64,000 nucleotides of DNA from Chitinophagaceae bacterium (GTDB lineage: Bacteria > Bacteroidota > Bacteroidia > Chitinophagales > Chitinophagaceae): NCBI GenBank assembly GCA_043756605.1, contig JAYURR010000174.1, forward strand, positions 4,641 to 68,640, read 5' to 3'. The notes under the pieces were generated by a model. That model was given only the letters and a program-made list of their open reading frames with translations. It was not told where the DNA came from and did not search any database. This document shows positions 18,018 to 61,846 of this stretch, piece after piece. Made by a program: the position numbers and the translations under genes. Each line of letters begins with the position of its first letter. Positions within the stretch are counted from its first letter, which is position 1.

Positions 18018-18671
18018 ATGAATATTCAGGATTTCCCTATAACTATCGGTTTAATAATTGCCAACGTAATTTTTTCTTTAATTGGTTTTAGCAATGCCGC
18101 TTTTATTGATAAAACCATTATGTGGCCATACCGGGTTGCCCGGGAGAACCAGTACCACCGTTTTATAAGTTCGGGTTTTTTACATGCCGATTGGATGCAC
18201 CTTATCTTTAACATGTTTACCTTTTTCTTTTTTGGTATTGGTTTAGAGAGTTATTTAAAAGCATACGGCCTTGGTGGTAATATATCTTACCTGTTGTTAT
18301 ATTTTTTGGCATTAATTGTTTCTGATATTCCCAGTTACCTAAAGCATAAAGATGATAATAATTACCGGTCGCTGGGTGCTTCGGGTGCGGTAAGTGCCGT
18401 GGTTTTTGCAGCAATTGTGTTTAATCCGTGGAGCAGTATCCGGCTATACGGTTTTATAAAAATGTCGGCAGCATTATTTGCCGTATTGTACATTGTGTAT
18501 TGTGTTTACATGGGCAAAAAAAACAGCGATCATGTAAACCATGATGCTCATCTGTGGGGATCTTTATTTGGCCTGGCATTTATACTGGTTTTAATAGGCG
18601 TAGTAAGACCCGAATTGTTTACCCCCATTTTTGAACAGCTTAAGCACCCCAGTTTATTTGGCAGAGAATAA
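18018..18671 (+). CDS. Rhomboid family intramembrane serine protease
   Basis: FLHADWMHLIFNM, SLGASGAVS (catalytic Ser), NHDAHLWG (catalytic His). Confidence 0.93.
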   Translation: MNIQDFPITIGLIIANVIFSLIGFSNAAFIDKTIMWPYRVARENQYHRFISSGFLHADWMHLIFNMFTFFFFGIGLESYLKAYGLGGNISYLLLYFLALIVSDIPSYLKHKDDNNYRSLGASGAVSAVVFAAIVFNPWSSIRLYGFIKMSAALFAVLYIVYCVYMGKKNSDHVNHDAHLWGSLFGLAFILVLIGVVRPELFTPIFEQLKHPSLFGRE

Positions 18672-20081
18672 TGATAGCTGCAATATATTTTTAGCGCTGT
18701 CCGTTATTTTAAACCTATCATCAATACGCAGGCCAACCACCCAGATGATTTTTTTATCCATTTCAATAACCCATGTTTTTTCTTTTTGGGTGAGGGATAA
18801 TTTCTGATCAATTAAAAACCGACTTAGTTTTTTCTTCTTTTGCATGCCCAGCGGATAAAAATAATCGCCGGGTTTGCATTTGCGGAGGAGTAAGGGGAAT
18901 TTTATTTCAGATGCATTTACTTGGGCGATTTGGTTTGAGGTTTGTAGTTGGTGGTTGGTGGTTGGGAGCAGTTCAATATTAATTGAACCCTGCTGAAAAT
19001 CAACTTTTATATCATTTTTTTCTATAAAAATATTTTGCGCCTCTATAGTTTTATTTGGCGCAATAATAAGCCAGTTGCGGTTTTTAATGATGCGGTGTGT
19101 GGCTGATGAAATATATTTTCCGGTTTCGCTTTTTAATAAATCAACAACTTCATTTGTTTGATGTGCTGTAAAACCGTAGTCTTTTACAATCTCGTAAAGT
19201 ATTGTGTGCAATGCTTCGGTTTTCTGTAATTTTAAAACAGGGATATGTATTTCGTTGCCTTTTTGCTCCAGTAATTTTTTTTTGGCAAGATGTACAGATT
19301 GCTGGTACAGCGTTTCAATTTCCCGGAAACGTTCAATATTGTTCAGCAAATTATCCTGCACCTGCGGAAACACTTTTTGCAGATCGGGAATGAGTTGGTT
19401 GCGAAAATAATTGCGGGTGTATTTATCGGATGCGTTGGAAGAATCTTCCACAAAATTTAAATTATTTGCTTTTGCAAATGCAGCAATGTCTTCTTTTTTG
19501 GCAAAGAGTAAAGGCCGGATAATATTGCCTTGTTTTGGTAAGATACCATGCAGCCCATTAATGCCGGTGCCTTTAAAGAAATTCATTAAGAGGGTTTCGA
19601 TGTTATCGTTGGCGTGGTGTGCAGTGATAAGAAAATTGGCAATGGGCAATTGGCAATCCGGCTCTGAAGTTTCAATCTCTTTTGCATTTTGCATATTGCC
19701 TATTGCCAATTGCCCATCGCCCTTTGCATATTGCATATTGCCTGTTAACTCTGCAAACCAGTTGTAACGCAATTCCCTGGCGGCAACCTGTATGCTGAGT
19801 TTATTTTCGGTTGCAAATGTTTGTGTGTCGAATTTTTTAACCTGTACTTCAACATCATATTTTTTACCAAGTTCTTTTACAAACGCTTCATCACGTTCGC
19901 TTTCATCTCCACGCAATTGAAAGTTGCAGTGAGCAATGGTAAAATCGTAACCAGCCTGTTTGCAGAGTTCGCAAAGCACTACACTATCTACTCCCCCGCT
20001 TACGGCAAGCAACAGCTTATCTTTTGGTTGAAAAAGATTTTTGTGTTTGATGTATTGCTGAAATTTTTCTAAAAGATTCAT
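18654..20081 (-). CDS. tilS: tRNA(Ile)-lysidine synthetase carrying a repeat-derived insertion
   Basis: AVSGGVDS PP-loop, AARELRY, TAHHANDNIET, YTRNYFR, C-terminal KKKLSRFLID. Confidence 0.96.
   Translation of the reverse strand: MNLLEKFQQYIKHKNLFQPKDKLLLAVSGGVDSVVLCELCKQAGYDFTIAHCNFQLRGDESERDEAFVKELGKKYDVEVQVKKFDTQTFATENKLSIQVAARELRYNWFAELTGNMQYAKGDGQLAIGNMQNAKEIETSEPDCQLPIANFLITAHHANDNIETLLMNFFKGTGINGLHGILPKQGNIIRPLLFAKKEDIAAFAKANNLNFVEDSSNASDKYTRNYFRNQLIPDLQKVFPQVQDNLLNNIERFREIETLYQQSVHLAKKKLLEQKGNEIHIPVLKLQKTEALHTILYEIVKDYGFTAHQTNEVVDLLKSETGKYISSATHRIIKNRNWLIIAPNKTIEAQNIFIEKNDIKVDFQQGSINIELLPTTNHQLQTSNQIAQVNASEIKFPLLLRKCKPGDYFYPLGMQKKKKLSRFLIDQKLSLTQKEKTWVIEMDKKIIWVVGLRIDDRFKITDSAKNILQLSLFSAK
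18929..18965. repeat. Heptamer tract inside the 3' part of tilS
   Basis: Coding strand caaccac-caaccac-caactac-aaacctc-aaaccaa, encoding PTTNHQLQTSNQ. Confidence 0.6.
19634..19742. repeat. Heptamer-arm palindromic element in frame inside tilS
   Basis: ggcaatg/ggcaatt repeats (19634-19657) are inverted relative to attgcct-attgcca-attgccc (19695-19717); two ttgcat(a/t) tandem tracts are also present. Confidence 0.85.
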
Positions 20082-20228: not shown

Positions 20229-20262
20229 GAACCAAAAACTAAAAACCACAAACCTCAAACTA
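20229..20262. repeat. Heptamer arm starting at the TPR gene stop codon
   Basis: Minus strand TAG-tttgagg-tttgtgg-tttttag-tttttgg-tt. Confidence 0.6.
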
Positions 20263-20675: not shown

Positions 20676-21419
20676 ATGAAGATCTTAGTTTGTATCAGTA
20701 AAACCCCCGATACTACCGCAAAAATAGCCTTCGCCGATAACAATACGAAATTCGCTGCAGATGGCGTACAATGGATCATCAACCCGTACGATGAATGGTA
20801 TGCCCTGGTAAGAGCCATTGAGTTGAAGGAAGCCGATGCTGCAACAATAATACATTTGGTTACCGTTGGAGGTGCCGACAGCGACCCAATCATCCGTAAA
20901 GCATTGGCCCTTGGTGGCGATGAATCTTTCCGGGTAAATGCTGATAGTCATGATAGTTTTTACATTGCATCGCAAATTGCAGAAATTGCAAAAAAAGGCA
21001 GCTACGATTTAGTGTTTACCGGTAAAGAAACCATTGATTATAATGGATCTTCTATTGGCGGCATGGTGGCTGAACTGCTTGACCTGCCCTATGTTTCACT
21101 GGCAACTAAATTTACACTGGAAGGAACGGATGCCATTATTAACCGTGAAATTGAAGGTGGAGAAGAAACCAATAAAGTAGCATTACCGCTGGTGGTTAGC
21201 TGCCAAAAGGGAATGGCTGAACAACGAATACCTAATATGAAAGGCATTATGGGTGCCAGAAGCAAACCATTAACTGCTGTTGAGCCGGTTGCGGTTAATG
21301 CGCTGACAAGCGTTGCATCTTTTGAATTGCCACCTGCAAAGGCTGGAGTAAAATTAGTTTCAGCAGATAATCCTGAAGAGTTGGTAAGATTATTACATGA
21401 AGAAGCAAAAGCAATTTAA
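20676..21419 (+). CDS. etfB: Electron transfer flavoprotein beta subunit
   Basis: MKILVCISKTPDT, INPYDE, GKETIDY, RIPNMKGIMGA; start moved to ATG 20676. Confidence 0.95.
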   Translation: MKILVCISKTPDTTAKIAFADNNTKFAADGVQWIINPYDEWYALVRAIELKEADAATIIHLVTVGGADSDPIIRKALALGGDESFRVNADSHDSFYIASQIAEIAKKGSYDLVFTGKETIDYNGSSIGGMVAELLDLPYVSLATKFTLEGTDAIINREIEGGEETNKVALPLVVSCQKGMAEQRIPNMKGIMGARSKPLTAVEPVAVNALTSVASFELPPAKAGVKLVSADNPEELVRLLHEEAKAI

Positions 21420-21881
21420 TGGATAGTTGATAATGGTATAATGGATAATGTTTTAAATTTATAACATCACTCATTACCAAAACTATACATTATGAAAGAG
21501 AATATTTTAAAAGACAAGAGTTTCAATTTTGCGATAAGAATTGTAAATCTTTATAAATTTCTTAAGTAAGAACATGGTGAATATATTTTATCGCAGCAAT
21601 TAATAAGAAGCGGAACATCAATCGGGGCAATAGTTAGAGAAGCTGAACATGCAGAAAGCATTAAAGACTTTGTACATAAATTGAGTATTGGTTTAAAGGA
21701 AGCAAATGAATCGAAGTATTGGCTTGATCTGCTTTTTGCGACAGAGTTCATTACAAAAAAAATGTACGAATCGTTAAACAAGGATTGTGAGGAGCTTTTA
21801 AAATTGCTTATTGCAAGCGTAAAAACGAGTAAGCTTAAAATTAAATAAATTATCAATTATCCATTATTAAATTATCCATTG
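21417..21881. mobile_element. Heptamer-inverted-repeat cassette carrying a four-helix-bundle gene
   Basis: Left arm taatggatagttgataatggtataatggataatg (21417-21450) includes the etfB stop; right arm aattatcaattatccattattaaattatccattg (21848-21881) ends 2 bp before the etfA ATG. Mobility is inferred. Confidence 0.65.
21492..21848 (+). pseudogene. Four-helix-bundle protein (TIGR02436/23S rRNA IVP family) with an in-frame stop
   Basis: Manual translation MKENILKDKSFNFAIRIVNLYKFLK*EHGEYILSQQLIRSGTSIGAIVREAEHAESIKDFVHKLSIGLKEANESKYWLDLL...; TAA at 21567-21569. Confidence 0.88.
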
Positions 21882-21883
21882 TC

Positions 21884-22843
21884 ATGGTTTTAATATTTTT
21901 AGATCTATCAGAAGGCCACATTAAAAAATCATCTTTTGAAGCAGCAAGTTACGGTGCAAAAGTTGCCGAACTTTTAGGTACCACTGCCGATGCCATTGTA
22001 TTGGGCAATGTTGCAGATGATTTAACAACTTTGGGCAACTACGGCATTAAAAAAGTGCATACCGTAAAAAATGATGCACTTGATCATGTAGATGCACAGG
22101 TGTTTACAAAAATAATTGCCGATGCTGCTAAAGCCATTGATGCTAAAGTAATCATCTTCTCCAATAACTTTAATGGCAAAGCCATTGCGCCACGTTTAAG
22201 TGTAAGGCTTAAGGCTGGCCTGGTTTCTGGTGCTGTTGCCCTACCGGATTTGAGCAACGGATTTACGGTTAAGAAAAACGTTTTCAGCGGTAAGGCTTTC
22301 GCCAATATCACGGTGGCAACTGATATTAAGATCATTGCATTAAATCCAAATTCATATACCGTTGTACCAACAACAGCCACTGCAGAAGTTGCCGAATTTA
22401 CAGCAACAGTTGATGCTGCAAAAGTACAGGTAACTGCAACCGATAAAGTAGTTGGCGAAGTTCCATTGAGCGAAGCGGAAATTGTAGTAAGCGGCGGACG
22501 TGGTTTAAAAGGCCCGGAAAACTGGGCATTGGTTACCGACCTTGCAAAATTATTGGGTGCAGCTACGGCCTGCAGCCGCCCGGTTGCTGATAGCGACTGG
22601 AGGCCGCATCACGAACATGTAGGACAAACAGGCCTTGCCATTGCACCAAACTTATACATTGCCATTGGTATTTCTGGCGCCATACAACATCTTGCCGGTG
22701 TAAACCGCAGTAAAGTAATTGTGGTAATTAATAAAGACCCCGAAGCTCCGTTTTTTAAAGCGGCAGATTATGGTATTGTAGGCGATGCTTTTGAAGTGAT
22801 GCCGAAGATTATTGAAGCGGTTAAAAAATTGAAGCAGGCGTAA
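21884..22843 (+). CDS. etfA: Electron transfer flavoprotein alpha subunit
   Basis: VVSGGRG, ACSRPVAD, HVGQTG, YIAIGISGAIQHLAG, AINKD-like VINKD. Confidence 0.96.
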   Translation: MVLIFLDLSEGHIKKSSFEAASYGAKVAELLGTTADAIVLGNVADDLTTLGNYGIKKVHTVKNDALDHVDAQVFTKIIADAAKAIDAKVIIFSNNFNGKAIAPRLSVRLKAGLVSGAVALPDLSNGFTVKKNVFSGKAFANITVATDIKIIALNPNSYTVVPTTATAEVAEFTATVDAAKVQVTATDKVVGEVPLSEAEIVVSGGRGLKGPENWALVTDLAKLLGAATACSRPVADSDWRPHHEHVGQTGLAIAPNLYIAIGISGAIQHLAGVNRSKVIVVINKDPEAPFFKAADYGIVGDAFEVMPKIIEAVKKLKQA

Positions 22844-46220: not shown

Positions 46221-47003
46221 ATGCATGTTCCAACAATGGCAGAAATGATGGCGAAGGGTGAAAGCCCCGAAATTTTATTTTGGGTAGGCTGCGCCGGAAG
46301 TTTTGACCAGCGGGCACAAAAAATAACCAAAGCATTTGTAACCATTTTGGATAAGGTTGGTATCAACTACGCCATCTTGGGTAAAGAAGAAATGTGTACC
46401 GGCGATCCGGCCCGCCGTGCCGGCAACGAATTTATGTTTCAGATGATGGCTTACCAGAATATTCAGATTTTGAATGGTTATGGTATTAAGAAAATTGTAA
46501 CGGCCTGTCCGCATTGTTTTAATACATTGGGTAATGAATATCCTGAATTGGGCGGCACTTACGAAGTAATTCATCATGCAACTTTTTTACAGCAATTAAT
46601 TGACGAAGGCAAAATAAAAATGACCGAAGGCGGTACTTTTAAAGGCAAAAAAATTACTTACCACGATAGTTGTTATTTGGGCCGTGCCAATAATATTTAC
46701 GAAGCACCACGCAAAGTGCTGGAAGCCTTGGATGTTTCTTTAGTTGAGATGAAACGCTGCCGCAGCAACGGTTTGTGCTGTGGTGCCGGCGGTGCACAAA
46801 TGTTTAAAGAGGAAGAAAAAGGTGAAATCCGCATTAATATAGATCGCAGTAACGAAGCCATTGCAACCGGTGCCAGCGTTATTGCAGCGGCATGCCCGTT
46901 TTGTAATACTATGATGACAGATGGTGTAAAAAACAGTAATAAGGAAGATGAGGTGCAGGTGTTGGATATTGCGGAGTTGGTTGCTGCATCAATGGCAAAC
47001 TAA
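46221..47003 (+). CDS. (Fe-S)-binding CCG-domain protein (GlpC/HdrB-like)
   Basis: WVGCAG, CTGDP, ACPHC, YHDSCYLGR, LCCGAGG, ACPFC. Confidence 0.9.
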   Translation: MHVPTMAEMMAKGESPEILFWVGCAGSFDQRAQKITKAFVTILDKVGINYAILGKEEMCTGDPARRAGNEFMFQMMAYQNIQILNGYGIKKIVTACPHCFNTLGNEYPELGGTYEVIHHATFLQQLIDEGKIKMTEGGTFKGKKITYHDSCYLGRANNIYEAPRKVLEALDVSLVEMKRCRSNGLCCGAGGAQMFKEEEKGEIRINIDRSNEAIATGASVIAAACPFCNTMMTDGVKNSNKEDEVQVLDIAELVAASMAN

Positions 47004-47034
47004 TGGATAATTTAGTAATGGATAATTGATAATG
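47001..47034. repeat. Solo TAATGGA-heptamer arm beginning with the upstream stop codon
   Basis: taatggataatttagtaatggataattgataatg is 31/34 identical to the reverse complement of 21848-21881. Confidence 0.85.
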
Positions 47035-58079: not shown

Positions 58080-59588
58080 ATGTTGAATGTAGCTACCAAT
58101 AAAAAACATGATGAAGCAAGGCAGGGAGAAGCATTTGCCCTGTTTGCCAACGATACAAACCCATACAAAAAATACTTTTACATTGAAAGTTATGGCTGCG
58201 CCATGAATTTTGCCGATAGCGAAGTGGTGGCTTCTATATTAATGGATAATGGTTTTGGTGCCACCAATAATTTTAAAGAAGCCGATCTTATTTTTATAAA
58301 CACCTGTTCTATCCGTGAAAAGGCAGAAACCACTGTACGCAAACGTTTAACAGAATTTCGCCAGATAAAAAAACAAAAACCAGGCATGCTGGTGGGTGTG
58401 CTGGGCTGTATGGCCGAGCGATTGAAAGCACAGTTTTTAGAAGAAGAAAAATTAGTTGATTTAGTAATTGGCCCCGATGCATACCGCAGTTTACCTGCAC
58501 TAATTGAAGAAGCAGAAACCGGCCAGAAAGCAGTAAATGTTTTATTAAGCCGTGATGAAACCTATGCAGATATTGCACCCATTCGCCTTAACAGCAATGG
58601 TGTAAATGCGTTTGTAAGCATCATGCGTGGCTGCAATAATATGTGTTCGTTTTGTGTGGTGCCATTTACCCGTGGCCGGGAACGAAGCCGTGATGCCGCA
58701 TCTATCATCAACGAATGTAAAACCTTATTTGAGCAGGGATACAGAGAAGTAACTTTGCTGGGGCAGAATGTGGATAGTTACCATTACACAGCCCCCCCGG
58801 CCATCCAAGGGGGGAGTTTGGAACACCCTGCAAATTCAAATAGCACTGTAAATTCGCAGGGTGCTTTTTCTCCCCCCTTGGGGGGCGGGGGGGCTGCTGT
58901 TACTTTTGCCATACTTTTAGAGCAGGTCGCACTAATCTCTCCCCTCCTCCGTGTACGCTTCTCCACTTCGCATCCAAAAGATATTACCGATGATGTGTTG
59001 CACACAATTGTGAAATACGAAAACATCTGCAATTATATTCACCTGCCGGTACAAAGTGGCAGCACACGTGTGTTGCAAATGATGAACCGCACCTACAGCC
59101 GTGAGTGGTACATTGCCAAAGTAAACCGCATACGGGAGTTGATACCGCATTGTGGCATTTCAACTGATATGATAACCGGTTTTTGTACCGAAACAGAGGA
59201 AGATCACCAGCAATCTTTAAGCCTGATGGAATACTGCAAGTACGATCTGGCTTATATGTACTTTTACAGCGAACGGCCGGGAACCCTTGCTGCCCGTAGG
59301 TTTAAAGATGATGTACCGCTTGATGTTAAAAAACGCAGACTACAGGAAATGGTTGACCTCTATCGTGGCCACTCATTACTTGCCATGCAAAAGGAAGTGG
59401 GCAAAACCCGTAAAGTATTAATTGAAGGTCCATCTAAAAAAAGTGAAAACGATTTGTATGGCAGAACCGATCAGAATAAAGTAGTGGTATTTGAAAAAGG
59501 AAATTTAAAGGTGGGGGAATATGTAGAAGTACAAATTACATCTTGCACAGCAGGAACATTGATAGGCAAAACCCCCTCCGCCCCCTGA
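58080..59588 (+). CDS. miaB: tRNA-2-methylthio-N6-dimethylallyladenosine synthase carrying an internal insertion
   Basis: [29 protein letters not shown] radical-SAM motif, C-terminal TRAM domain. Confidence 0.97.
58789..58896. repeat. 108-bp palindromic element in frame inside miaB
   Basis: cagcccccccggccatccaaggggggag ... ctccccccttggggggcgggggggctg, with an inner caccctgc/gcagggtg pair. Confidence 0.88.
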
Positions 59589-60058
59589 AGGGGGAACTTT
59601 GTACTCTGCTGATGCAAAGATTTTTTATTTTGTTTCGAAAGTCGGAATGAATATGAAAGAAAATATGTTTTACGGAGCCGGGCATTTGATTTTTGAAAAG
59701 GCGAAGAAGTTGAGAAACAATGTTACGCCAACTGAAATGATTTTATGGGGAAGATTGAAAGAATATTTTCCCAATGTAAAATTCAGAAGGCAACATCCAA
59801 TTTCATTTTATATTGTTGACATATATTGTCATTCTAAAAAACTGGTTATTGAAATTGATGGAAGCATACATGATTTGGAAGAAATAAAAATAAAAGATGT
59901 ATTAAGACAAAAAGAACTGGAGGCACTGGGATTAAAAATCATCAGGTTTACCACAAAAGAAATTACAAACGAATTGGAAGCAGTTTTACAAACAATTGAA
60001 AAACACTTAAAATAATCATACTCCAAAGTTCCCCCTTCAGGGGGCGGAGGGGGTTTTG
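59567..60058. mobile_element. 492-bp element with perfect 35-bp terminal inverted repeats enclosing a DUF559 nuclease gene
   Basis: caaaaccccctccgccccctgaagggggaactttg (59567-59601) is the exact reverse complement of 60024-60058. Mobility is inferred. Confidence 0.78.
59653..60015 (+). CDS. DUF559 / Vsr-like endonuclease domain protein
   Basis: AKKLRNNVTPTEMILW, KFRRQHPI, VDIYC, LVIEIDGSIH, IRF. Confidence 0.92.
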   Translation: MKENMFYGAGHLIFEKAKKLRNNVTPTEMILWGRLKEYFPNVKFRRQHPISFYIVDIYCHSKKLVIEIDGSIHDLEEIKIKDVLRQKELEALGLKIIRFTTKEITNELEAVLQTIEKHLK

Positions 60059-60060
60059 TT

Positions 60061-61284
60061 ATGGAACTACAAACAATAAAAAACCGTTTCGGCATTATCG
60101 GCAATTCATCGGGCCTTAACCATGCATTAAATATTGCCGTGCAGGTTGCAAATACCGATCTCAGCGTACTTATCAATGGCGAGAGTGGCGTGGGTAAAGA
60201 AGTTTTCTCACAAATCATTCATGCATTAAGTGCACGTAAACACAATCCATTTATTGCGGTAAACTGCGGTGCCATTCCCGAAGGCACTATTGATTCGGAA
60301 TTATTTGGCCACGAGAAAGGATCTTTTACCGGTGCAGTTGACAGTCGTAAAGGTTATTTTGAAACCGTTAACGGCGGTACTATTTTTTTAGATGAAATTG
60401 GAGAATTACCACTGGGTACACAGGCACGTTTGTTACGGGTGCTGGAAGCCGGCGAATACATACGTGTGGGCAGCAGCAAAGTGCAAAAAACAGATGTACG
60501 TGTTATTGCCGCTACCAACAAAGAGCTGATTGAATATACCCAGACAAATCGTTTTAGAGAAGACTTATATTACCGCTTAAACACAGTGCCCATAAGGGTT
60601 CCGGCATTGCGAGACAGAAAAGAAGATATTTATTTATTGTTCCGCAAGTTTGTAACCGATTTTTCTGATCGTTACAAAGGCAACCCGGTACAATTAGATG
60701 ATGGCGCAAAAGCTGTGTTAATTAACTATCCGTGGCCCGGTAATGTAAGGGAATTGAAGAATATTGCAGAGCAGATATCGGTACTTAGCCAGGATAAAAT
60801 GATCAACACAAATACCATGCAGCGTTTTTTACCCGATCATAATTATTCACGCTTGCCGGTACTGGCTGGCGGCGCAGGCTCGGTAAGCCAGAGCGAATTT
60901 GCAAACGAAAGGGACATTTTGTACAAGCTTTTTTTCGACATGAAAAAAGATGTAAACGAACTTAAGAAAATGTTTTTTGATCTTTTACAAAACCCCAACA
61001 TTGCACAGCATGCTCCTGTTTATAACAATCAGGCATTTGCAGAGCTAAATAACAATGCCCCGGCAAATAATTCATCGGCACCCGTTTTTTTACCGCATAA
61101 TAATGATACGATTGATCACCACGAAGATGTGGAAGAATCTTTAAGCATAGTTGATAAAGAAAAAGAACTCATCATCAAAGCATTAAAAAAACACAAAGGC
61201 AAACGTAAAGATGCATCGCTTGATTTAGGGATTAGTGAGCGTACTTTGTACCGTAAATTAAAAGAGTATGATATTGAAGAGTAA
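60061..61284 (+). CDS. Sigma-54-interaction AAA+ / Fis-family regulator lacking a receiver domain
   Basis: GESGVGKE, SELFGHEKGSFTGA, FLDEIGE, WPGNVREL, C-terminal LGISERTLYRKL. Confidence 0.92.
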   Translation: MELQTIKNRFGIIGNSSGLNHALNIAVQVANTDLSVLINGESGVGKEVFSQIIHALSARKHNPFIAVNCGAIPEGTIDSELFGHEKGSFTGAVDSRKGYFETVNGGTIFLDEIGELPLGTQARLLRVLEAGEYIRVGSSKVQKTDVRVIAATNKELIEYTQTNRFREDLYYRLNTVPIRVPALRDRKEDIYLLFRKFVTDFSDRYKGNPVQLDDGAKAVLINYPWPGNVRELKNIAEQISVLSQDKMINTNTMQRFLPDHNYSRLPVLAGGAGSVSQSEFANERDILYKLFFDMKKDVNELKKMFFDLLQNPNIAQHAPVYNNQAFAELNNNAPANNSSAPVFLPHNNDTIDHHEDVEESLSIVDKEKELIIKALKKHKGKRKDASLDLGISERTLYRKLKEYDIEE

Positions 61285-61287
61285 AGT

Positions 61288-61378
61288 AATTGGCAATGGG
61301 CAATGGGCAATGGGTAATGGGCAACAGCCAATGGGCAAAAATATACTGCTCATTGCTTGTTGCATATTGCTTATTGCC
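61288..61378. repeat. GGCAATG-heptamer inverted-repeat element overlapping the lptE-like 5' end
   Basis: aattggcaatgggcaatgggcaatgggtaatgggcaa (61288-61324) ... cattgcttgttgcatattgcttattgcc (61351-61378). Confidence 0.82.
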
Positions 61379-61846
61379 TTATTCAATTTCGCTACCTGCA
61401 AATATGGCTTTAAAGATATTGGTGGTTTACCAACCGAGGTAAAAACCTTTCGTGTAAATTATTTTGAAAATAAAGCCGAATATAAAAATCCGCAATTAAG
61501 CCCGCAGGTTACCGAAAGACTAAAACAAAAAATAATCGGCACTACCAGGCTGCGGCAAACAAACGATGAGGATGCACATTACGATATCAGCGGTTATGTT
61601 TCGGGCTACTACACCAGCACAACAGGCATCAGCGGCAACACTACCAGTCTTAACCGGTTAACGGCCACTTTTCATCTTGTATTTAAAAATACACTGGATG
61701 AAAAAAAGAATTTTGAAGCAGATGTAACTTACAGTCTTGATTTTGATGCCAACCTGAGCTTGAGCCAGGTTGAGCAGGCCCGGGGCGATGAAATATCAAA
61801 AAATTTAACCGATGCTATTTTTAATAAAATTTTTTCTAACTGGTAA
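61331..61846 (+). CDS. lptE: LptE-like LPS assembly lipoprotein
   Basis: Lipoprotein signal ending FAT-C; YFENKA, ISGYV, RLT...DAIFNKIFSNW; position between the sigma-54 regulator and secG. Confidence 0.72.
   Translation: MGKNILLIACCILLIALFNFATCKYGFKDIGGLPTEVKTFRVNYFENKAEYKNPQLSPQVTERLKQKIIGTTRLRQTNDEDAHYDISGYVSGYYTSTTGISGNTTSLNRLTATFHLVFKNTLDEKKNFEADVTYSLDFDANLSLSQVEQARGDEISKNLTDAIFNKIFSNW

Follow-up and report, generated by a model that had tools for sequence, protein, structure and literature searches.

The activator-lptE junction and its features

The window analysed here, 64,000 nucleotides of DNA from a Ferruginibacter-like bacterium, carries between positions 60061 and 63061 a row of genes for a sigma-54 activator, LptE, a 284-aa protein without an assigned family and SecG, in that order. 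The activator-lptE synteny is conserved among the loci that we fetched from related genomes and metagenomes. The features needed for what follows are these:

60061 to 61284, + strand: sigma-54 activator gene, with the AAA+ Sigma54_activat, AAA_lid_14 and HTH_8 domains (Pfam; NCBIfam).
61268 to 61846, + strand: lptE ORF, 192 aa when read from 61268 and 171 aa when read from 61331.
61268 to 61270, + strand: the most likely lptE start ATG, in frame in 62 of 75 species loci, with TAT as its Tyr codon in 62 of 62.
61285 to 61383, + strand: variable cassette, which takes in all of the heptamer hairpin and extends from the first base past the activator stop codon to the end of the 3' arm.
61288 to 61338, + strand: 5' arm, an array of 7.3 copies of GGCAATG that encodes the polar peptide GNGQWAMGNGQQPMG (TRF, translation).
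61331 to 61333, + strand: internal ATG inside a degenerate unit, GCCAATG, in the upper stem/loop region.
61347 to 61383, + strand: 3' arm, an array of five TATTGCY units that encodes the predicted h-region ILLIACCILLIA(L) (TRF, fold).
61388 to 61399, + strand: predicted lipobox F-A-T-C, with its Cys codon at 61397-61399, from which the mature protein would begin CKYGFKD.
18654 to 20081, - strand: tilS ORF, host of a second copy of the heptamer family.
19634 to 19743, - strand: that second copy, in frame, reading GNMQYAKGDGQLAIGNMQNAK...CQLPIANF.

The activator ends in ...KEYDIEE ahead of its TAA stop codon (61282-61284), and its C-terminus, LYRKLKEYDIEE, is kept in most relatives. The gene begins directly at the AAA+ domain, with no receiver or sensor domain; the low-complexity linker before the HTH shows indels between species, and over the last 450 nt of the gene ungapped identity drops to about 0.5 in many species pairs. 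Farther upstream, a 138-aa ORF (59599-60015) sits between miaB and the activator, and the MiaB ORF (within 58080-60015) has a Gly/Ser/Pro-rich insert.

The lptE ORF matches the Pfam LptE model PF04390 at 43.4 bits (cut-off 23), with residues 37-167 aligned over the full profile (1-118), and has 1933 homologues, with the name LptE given by NCBI and JGI; no NCBIfam model matched the ORF. In our alignment of the N-terminal region (A1), T22, C23, K24, Y25 and F27 are invariant and F20, A21 and G26 nearly so, such that FATC precedes a mature start of the form CKY.F in all relatives. The Phe at -3 is unusual when set against the classical lipobox [LVI][ASTVIG][GAS]C. The layout is nonetheless that predicted for a Sec/signal peptidase II substrate, with an n-region MILKSK...GK, an h-region NILLIACCILLIALFNF and the lipobox FATC. 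We considered as an alternative lipobox the LIAC that lies within the 3' arm and rejected it, both for an h-region of only five residues before it and for the conserved mature N-terminus, which starts at the Cys of FATC.

The heptamer arrays and their hairpin

Between the activator stop codon and the lipobox lie two tandem arrays of heptanucleotides in inverse orientation. For the 5' arm TRF gives a period of 7, a score of 67 and a consensus of AATGGGC, which is a rotation of GGCAATG; the 3' arm, some nine bases farther on, is returned as 5.1 copies of TGCTTAT, also with a period of 7. An inverted-repeat search pairs 61292-61323 with 61347-61378, i.e., arms of 32 nt that are 72-75% Watson-Crick complementary. 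Folded as RNA, positions 61262-61405 are predicted to form a single long hairpin of -52.4 kcal/mol (z = -5.26; 200 dinucleotide shuffles average -34.3 +/- 3.4 and none does as well), with 27 pairs in its outer stem, seven of them G-U. The limits of the element can be drawn to within a few bases: 61285-61383 is the sole part that differs among relatives, whose metagenome contigs break or skip exactly at 61284/85 and at 61382-84. Two minus-strand ORFs that run across the repeat (61116-61331 and 61258-61401) were set aside as artefacts of its stop-free sequence.

The repeats at this junction had been described in an initial annotation made from the letters alone, and that description is correct in every particular as regards the arrays, the inverted arms and their translation. 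The internal ATG does lie in the GGCAATG series, in one of its degenerate units, and the hydrophobic IACCILLIA that had been ascribed to the inverse arm is indeed encoded there, by attgcttgttgcatattgcttattgcc (61352-61378) in the LptE frame. The kinship that had been proposed with an insertion in tilS holds as well: with up to two mismatches, GGCAATGGGCAATG has eight matches in the window against 1.5 expected, a number reached in 0 of 100 shuffles, and all of them are confined to the lptE site and to 19638-19721 within tilS. The two copies share the heptamer family and differ in their loops.

Heptamers are not restricted to these two genes. Of 54 TRF rows for the 64-kb window, 20 have a period of 7 (some of them overlap each other), with units that include GGCAATG, TAATGGA, TGGTTGG/AACCAAA and AATTATC. 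Two TAATGGA arrays in inverse orientation (21417-21450 and 21848-21884) bracket a small ORF between two genes, and the unit occurs again at 25206-25238/25307-25340 and at 47001-47034. TGGTTGG (18931-18965) and AACCAAA (20230-20260) form another pair of inverse arrays, 1.3 kb apart, at the ends of tilS.

The start codon of lptE

Whether one or both arms are translated depends on where lptE begins. The initial annotation took the repeat itself to supply the start codon, at 61331. A second candidate, ATG 61268, spans the boundary between the activator's Tyr and Asp codons (TAT GAT), and its use would make the two genes overlap by 17 nt. To compare them we took the orthologous locus from 80 species-representative genomes and 80 metagenome contigs; 75 of the genome loci could be scored. 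The window falls in a clade of 52 loci (51 fetched plus the window; SH-aLRT 99). We refer to the stretch between the activator stop codon and the lipobox Cys as the spacer.

The overlapping ATG shares the lptE frame, with no stop before the Cys, in 62 of the 75 species-representative loci and in 52 of 52 within the window's clade, where the tight overlap of the two genes is itself conserved. Spacers in the 62 in-frame loci range from 64 to 238 nt and come in 23 lengths, every one of which is 1 mod 3. In the spacers of the 52-locus clade there are no stop codons in the lptE frame, as compared with 83 and 91 in the other two frames, which are open in only 11 and 10 of the 52; a lack of stops in the repeats as such would therefore not suffice to explain the open lptE frame. 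The codon for the Tyr that holds the overlapping ATG is TAT in all 62 loci, whereas a control Tyr, two codons after the lipobox Cys, is TAT in 20 of 62; of 13 loci that start lptE separately, 4 have TAC at the overlapping Tyr. Metagenome loci add 34 in-frame cases and one exception, which brings the distinct in-frame cassette sequences to 90 overall. These loci are related, so that 62 of 62 does not amount to 62 independent trials, and yet the 23 lengths and about eight cassette types show many separate events. Length modulo 3 together with the TAT codon provides a clean comparative rule for fixing disputed start codons.

Initiation at ATG 61331 would leave the 5' arm as an untranslated leader, with only the loop and the 3' arm translated, as MGKNILLIACCILLIALFNFATC. 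This has its attractions: the ATG is present and in frame, MGKNILLIACCILLIALFNFATC would be a canonical 22-residue lipoprotein signal with Lys in its n-region, and each G-type unit carries an ATG, such that some ATG is always in frame. Among the in-frame relatives, however, an in-frame ATG lies 15-32 codons ahead of the Cys in only 20 of 62, and several cassette types have no ATG at all; the window genome has two, at -29 and -22 codons from the Cys. A start at 61331 also leaves unexplained why spacers are 1 mod 3, why the lptE frame alone is free of stops and why the Tyr is always TAT. Ribosome profiling in Flavobacterium johnsoniae has identified A at -3, -6, -12 and -13 as positive determinants of initiation (PMC6847099); ATG 61268 has A at all four positions, while ATG 61331 has it at none of them and sits within the hairpin. 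We therefore regard exclusive initiation at 61331 as improbable and 61268 as most likely the conserved start, and the claim that the repeat furnishes the start codon is not borne out by the relatives. In the window genome ATG 61331 may serve as a secondary start, which would yield the same mature protein. With the conserved start at 61268, both arms would be translated, the 5' arm as n-region and the 3' arm as h-region.

The one exception among close relatives deserves separate mention. In metagenome locus L091 (108-251) the overlapping ATG is out of frame with lptE across a spacer of 122 nt; its frame reads MILKSKRKAVSSELLAVSS... to a stop codon, and lptE would need an internal GTG (VCSWQLAIGNLKLLAAC...). 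Behind this shift by one frame may lie a mistake of assembly in the repeat, a natural frameshift or a phase-off allele. The last of these recalls a contingency locus, in which slippage by a single heptamer would put lptE out of frame or onto another start in the manner of Neisseria opa, and the setting would suit one, with a slippage-prone repeat in a leader-coding region, a G-type unit that has ATGs in all frames and a locus, L091, that would be rescued only by its GTG. LptE is essential in E. coli, and by that analogy an off state should be costly. All of the other distinct cassettes (90) are in frame, moreover, and no length variant or indel of the lptE array was seen in contigs from four sediment metagenomes, a kind of data that hides rare variants. 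Phase switching at this locus thus strikes us as very improbable.

The two arms as probable n- and h-regions of the LptE signal

Translated in the LptE frame, the 3' arm gives ILLIACCILLIA and runs into LFNFATC. Without it only LFNF would be left ahead of the lipobox, and it is for this reason that the 3' arm appears to be needed as the h-region; nothing else upstream of LFNFATC could serve. Here the initial annotation was right about the hydrophobic core, even as its start codon is not supported. Orthologues without the GGCAATG repeat have different h-region codons, so the objection that the signal is encoded in the same way with or without the repeat fails.

Over the 62 loci the mean Kyte-Doolittle value is -0.80 for peptides of the 5' arm and +2.05 for those of the 3' arm, hydrophobicity is higher for the 3' arm in 59 of 62, and the purine content is 0.63 in 5' arms and 0.36 in 3' arms. 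By the structure of the genetic code, a codon with a central A, for a polar residue, has as its complement one with a central T, for a hydrophobic residue, so that a palindrome with its purine-rich arm first reads polar and then hydrophobic. This established property suggests that such a palindrome would be pre-adapted to the layout of an n-region followed by an h-region. In the window the 3' arm departs from the perfect complement of the 5' arm at seven positions, all of them transitions that give G-U pairs, and these seven turn ITHCTLPIA into IACCILLIA; the copy in tilS does not encode a signal peptide, and its reading, CQLPIANF, has stayed unpolished. In one cassette lineage, G-109 (L003, L006, L020, L023 and L035), the loop holds a second conserved small hairpin, GGCAATAGAATAGTTTTATTGCC-like, at columns 50-72 of alignment A3, which encodes a basic RRGNR / KK just before the h-region.

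We are thus led to a reading to which we would give a probability of roughly three in four, namely that lptE starts at ATG 61268 and that the hairpin lies wholly within the part of the gene that codes for the signal peptide, its arms serving as n-region and h-region. From an ATG 17 nt before the end of the activator gene, the purine-rich 5' arm would be read as the long polar n-region GNGQWAMGNGQQPMG, the A-rich loop as Lys-Asn and the pyrimidine-rich 3' arm as the h-region, after which signal peptidase II would cut at the lipobox. A heptamer array has no fixed frame, as it shows the same seven-residue period in all three; selection would permit only changes in length by a multiple of 3 nt, frequently by three units (21 nt), and would swap Pro, His and Thr codons of the 3' arm by way of transitions that still pair as G-U. 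The length of the n-region, about 25 residues from 61268, is great for a lipoprotein signal and counts against this reading. As judged from sequence, the long LptE preprotein would presumably be exported and cleaved.

A hot spot with interchangeable cassettes

In the 467 kb made up of all genome loci and the window, TRF finds 110 period-7 arrays, and the lptE sites, ~9 kb in all, account for 77 of these. A heptamer hairpin is present here in almost all members of the clade, with units that differ from one to another. About eight unrelated cassette types can be distinguished, with units GGCAATG; GGACGAC / GTGGTCT; ACAAGAT / CTTGTTA; GGATACT; AGCTATG with AATCTAA; AAGCTAC / GGCTTGC; AAAGTTA; and CGTTGGC. 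The types are distributed without regard to how the flanking genes are related (r = 0.02 for cassette identity versus flank identity). Sister species whose flanks are 92-95% identical can have unrelated cassettes (L031/L036, L016/L024, L049/L051/L052 and window/L010), and the same full-length cassette types recur across the tree at 75-88% identity, no closer than their flanks. Recent horizontal transfer of cassettes was rejected as a general explanation, as even the most similar ones are no more alike than the flanks. Within the G type, spacers of 91, 112, 133 and 154 nt form a series in steps of 21 nt, or three heptamers each.

In four metagenome runs (X1, X3, X4 and X5) the contig depth rises to 5-20x that of the flanks on the perfect GGCAATG array only (61289-61330), and loose contig ends from that stretch run into many unrelated sequences; the rise in depth and the many different flanks indicate that GGCAATG arrays are dispersed in those sediment communities.

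Much of this picture could be had without any foreign element, if a local simple-sequence repeat had grown by slippage and its palindrome had been kept or generated on the spot. The strong concentration of arrays at lptE sites, the 21-nt series and the full-length homology of cassette lineages, loops included, at a divergence similar to that of their flanks would all fit, and heptamers are the commonest long simple repeats of bacteria and have been attributed to slippage (Mrazek 2007, as represented in PMC4679880). Gradual drift, however, is not expected to give unrelated cassettes in sisters with nearly identical flanks, nor is the recurrence of the same types across the tree in its favor, and the presence of the family in tilS and at many other flanks in the metagenomes argues in the same direction. 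Purely local growth therefore seems to us rather unlikely. Mobile cassettes, conversion from dispersed copies and the reshuffling of old alleles by recombination may each account for the turnover. A bolder version, which we hold only tentatively and judge doubtful, would make the activator/lptE junction a fixed docking site for heptamer-hairpin cassettes, exchanged or overwritten by homing, gene conversion or recombination of old alleles, with an RNA hairpin that couples the two genes and arms that have been domesticated as n-region and h-region. If true, it would describe a translated, structured and replaceable junction element of a previously undescribed kind.

Distant relatives and the origin of the cassette

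Distant relatives (57-70% identity) have an ordinary short signal, e.g., MKSKSTIKLFALLTFLLMIFSFATC, with a start codon of its own; in these the overlapping ATG is absent or out of frame, and a real intergenic spacer separates the two genes. Several of them have non-coding heptamer hairpins directly after the activator stop codon (units AATTTGG in L063 and GGATACT in L067; also L057). The intergenic region of L057 (2318-2563) has, along with its AATTTGG heptamers, a near-perfect GC-rich palindrome (...GGTCGGTGTGGACACCGACC...GGTTGGTGTCCACACCAACC..., -75.7 kcal/mol), which lies at the same junction but is a palindrome of another kind.

The cassette could have come about by insertion of a mobile palindrome or by capture of an intergenic hairpin that followed the stop codon, and the outgroups favor capture, since several that start lptE separately have a non-coding heptamer hairpin in this position. 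Under this scheme, heptamer hairpins would favor a position just after the activator stop codon, the lptE ORF of the clade would have come to start at the upstream overlapping ATG, thereby taking in the stop-free hairpin, and the 3' arm of the captured hairpin would then have taken over the h-region. We infer that the cassette arose in this way, from a post-stop-codon hairpin taken into the ORF. Exaptation of a palindromic repeat as an export signal, as first proposed, is a fair word for the present state of the locus.

The same outgroup hairpins raise the prospect that the hairpin is primarily a structural signal in RNA or DNA (an mRNA stabiliser, an attenuator or a device for pacing translation) that pertains either to the 3' end of the activator gene or to how the two genes are coupled, with translation as no more than a constraint upon it. 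Every cassette type forms a hairpin in spite of unrelated units, wobble pairs place G on the 5' side and U on the 3' side in 154 cases versus 62 of the reverse, and both partners have changed in a compensatory way in 5 of the 28 pairs of the A-106 lineage. Against this, the fold has z < -2 in only 24 of 62 species and several cassettes have decayed, the G-109 lineage has 0 compensatory pairs of 37 and many that are broken, and selection for hydrophobic codons would yield the G-U bias too; the covariation test, with 5-6 sequences per lineage (A-106 and G-109), is a weak one. Searches of the hairpin for an intrinsic terminator found no terminator-like site or U tract (its tail reads CCTTATTCAATTTC), those for a promoter found nothing beyond chance, and Rfam gave no match at the hairpin, its lone hit being a chance one to Histone3 (E = 0.27) that falls beyond the hairpin and on the opposite strand. 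The evidence for a function of the hairpin in its own right is mixed, and a primarily structural role appears to us somewhat doubtful.

Comparison with known repeat systems

Several families of bacterial repeats resemble the lptE cassettes in part. The REP/BIME elements share with them a stable hairpin right after a stop codon and, apparently, membership in a multi-copy family, a likeness that is greatest for the non-coding state seen in our outgroups; they differ in that the arms at lptE are heptamer arrays and the copy is intragenic. PARCEL elements of Mollicutes, as described in PMC2996958, are likewise translated palindromic repeats, although they are large tandem intragenic repeats of surface proteins, whereas lptE has a single hairpin in a signal peptide.

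As regards the repeat type, the nearest counterparts are the heptanucleotide repeats known as STRR in Calothrix and the long SSRs of Mrazek et al. 2007, as recounted in PMC4679880 and PMC4692102, and the TAACTGA repeats of Beggiatoaceae, Cyanobacteria and five Bacteroidetes (PMC4679880, PMC4692102). Like them, the heptamers described here form many 7-nt arrays, with several units per genome and positions near start or stop codons, and several such arrays and unit families are present in the window. Arrays of the STRR and TAACTGA kinds are mostly direct, intergenic and untranslated, whereas lptE has two inverse arrays whose hairpin is read as protein. To our knowledge, the units at lptE and elsewhere in the window also differ from those of STRR. 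They are distinct from TAACTGA (PMC4679880) as well. Heptamer hairpins at the gene junctions of Chitinophagaceae may be flagged as an undescribed repeat system.

A parallel of another kind is found in Neisseria opa, which has coding repeats of CTCTT in the leader-peptide region (PMC3960869). There too an outer-membrane protein has part of its signal (leader) peptide encoded by a short tandem repeat. In opa the units are pentamers, no inverse partner is present, and frameshifts turn expression on and off; at lptE the frame is kept in essentially all lineages. Rickettsia palindromic elements (RPEs) are known from in-frame insertions into genes for proteins (Ogata et al. 2000, as reported in PMC10969869), and they appear to share with the present family the dispersal of a palindromic element of which copies lie in frame in ORFs (here lptE and tilS) and are translated as an extra peptide. 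In both lptE and the tilS copy the palindromic element keeps the reading frame. RPEs, in the same account, are ~150 bp in length with a fixed sequence and a conserved peptide, while the lptE cassettes consist of tandem 7-nt units with a peptide that is not conserved; unlike RPEs, moreover, the lptE site has different families in some 90 lineages, and its element supplies the core of a signal peptide that is needed.

If our reading is right, lptE illustrates how repeat DNA that is selfish or prone to slippage can, by simple means, be turned into a functional segment of a protein. The repeat would have replaced, in a whole clade, the ordinary signal of LptE, an essential protein of model Gram-negative bacteria, and its ~90 natural variants amount to a ready-made mutational scan of what the n-region and h-region of a lipoprotein will tolerate. 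The closest precedents are the RPEs for translated palindromes, opa for a repeat in a leader peptide and the heptanucleotide SSRs for the type of repeat. What is new in comparison with these is a read-through hairpin of two inverse heptamer arrays that on our reading supplies both halves of a signal peptide, and new as well is the keeping of its frame over about 90 variants while the repeat family has been exchanged repeatedly.
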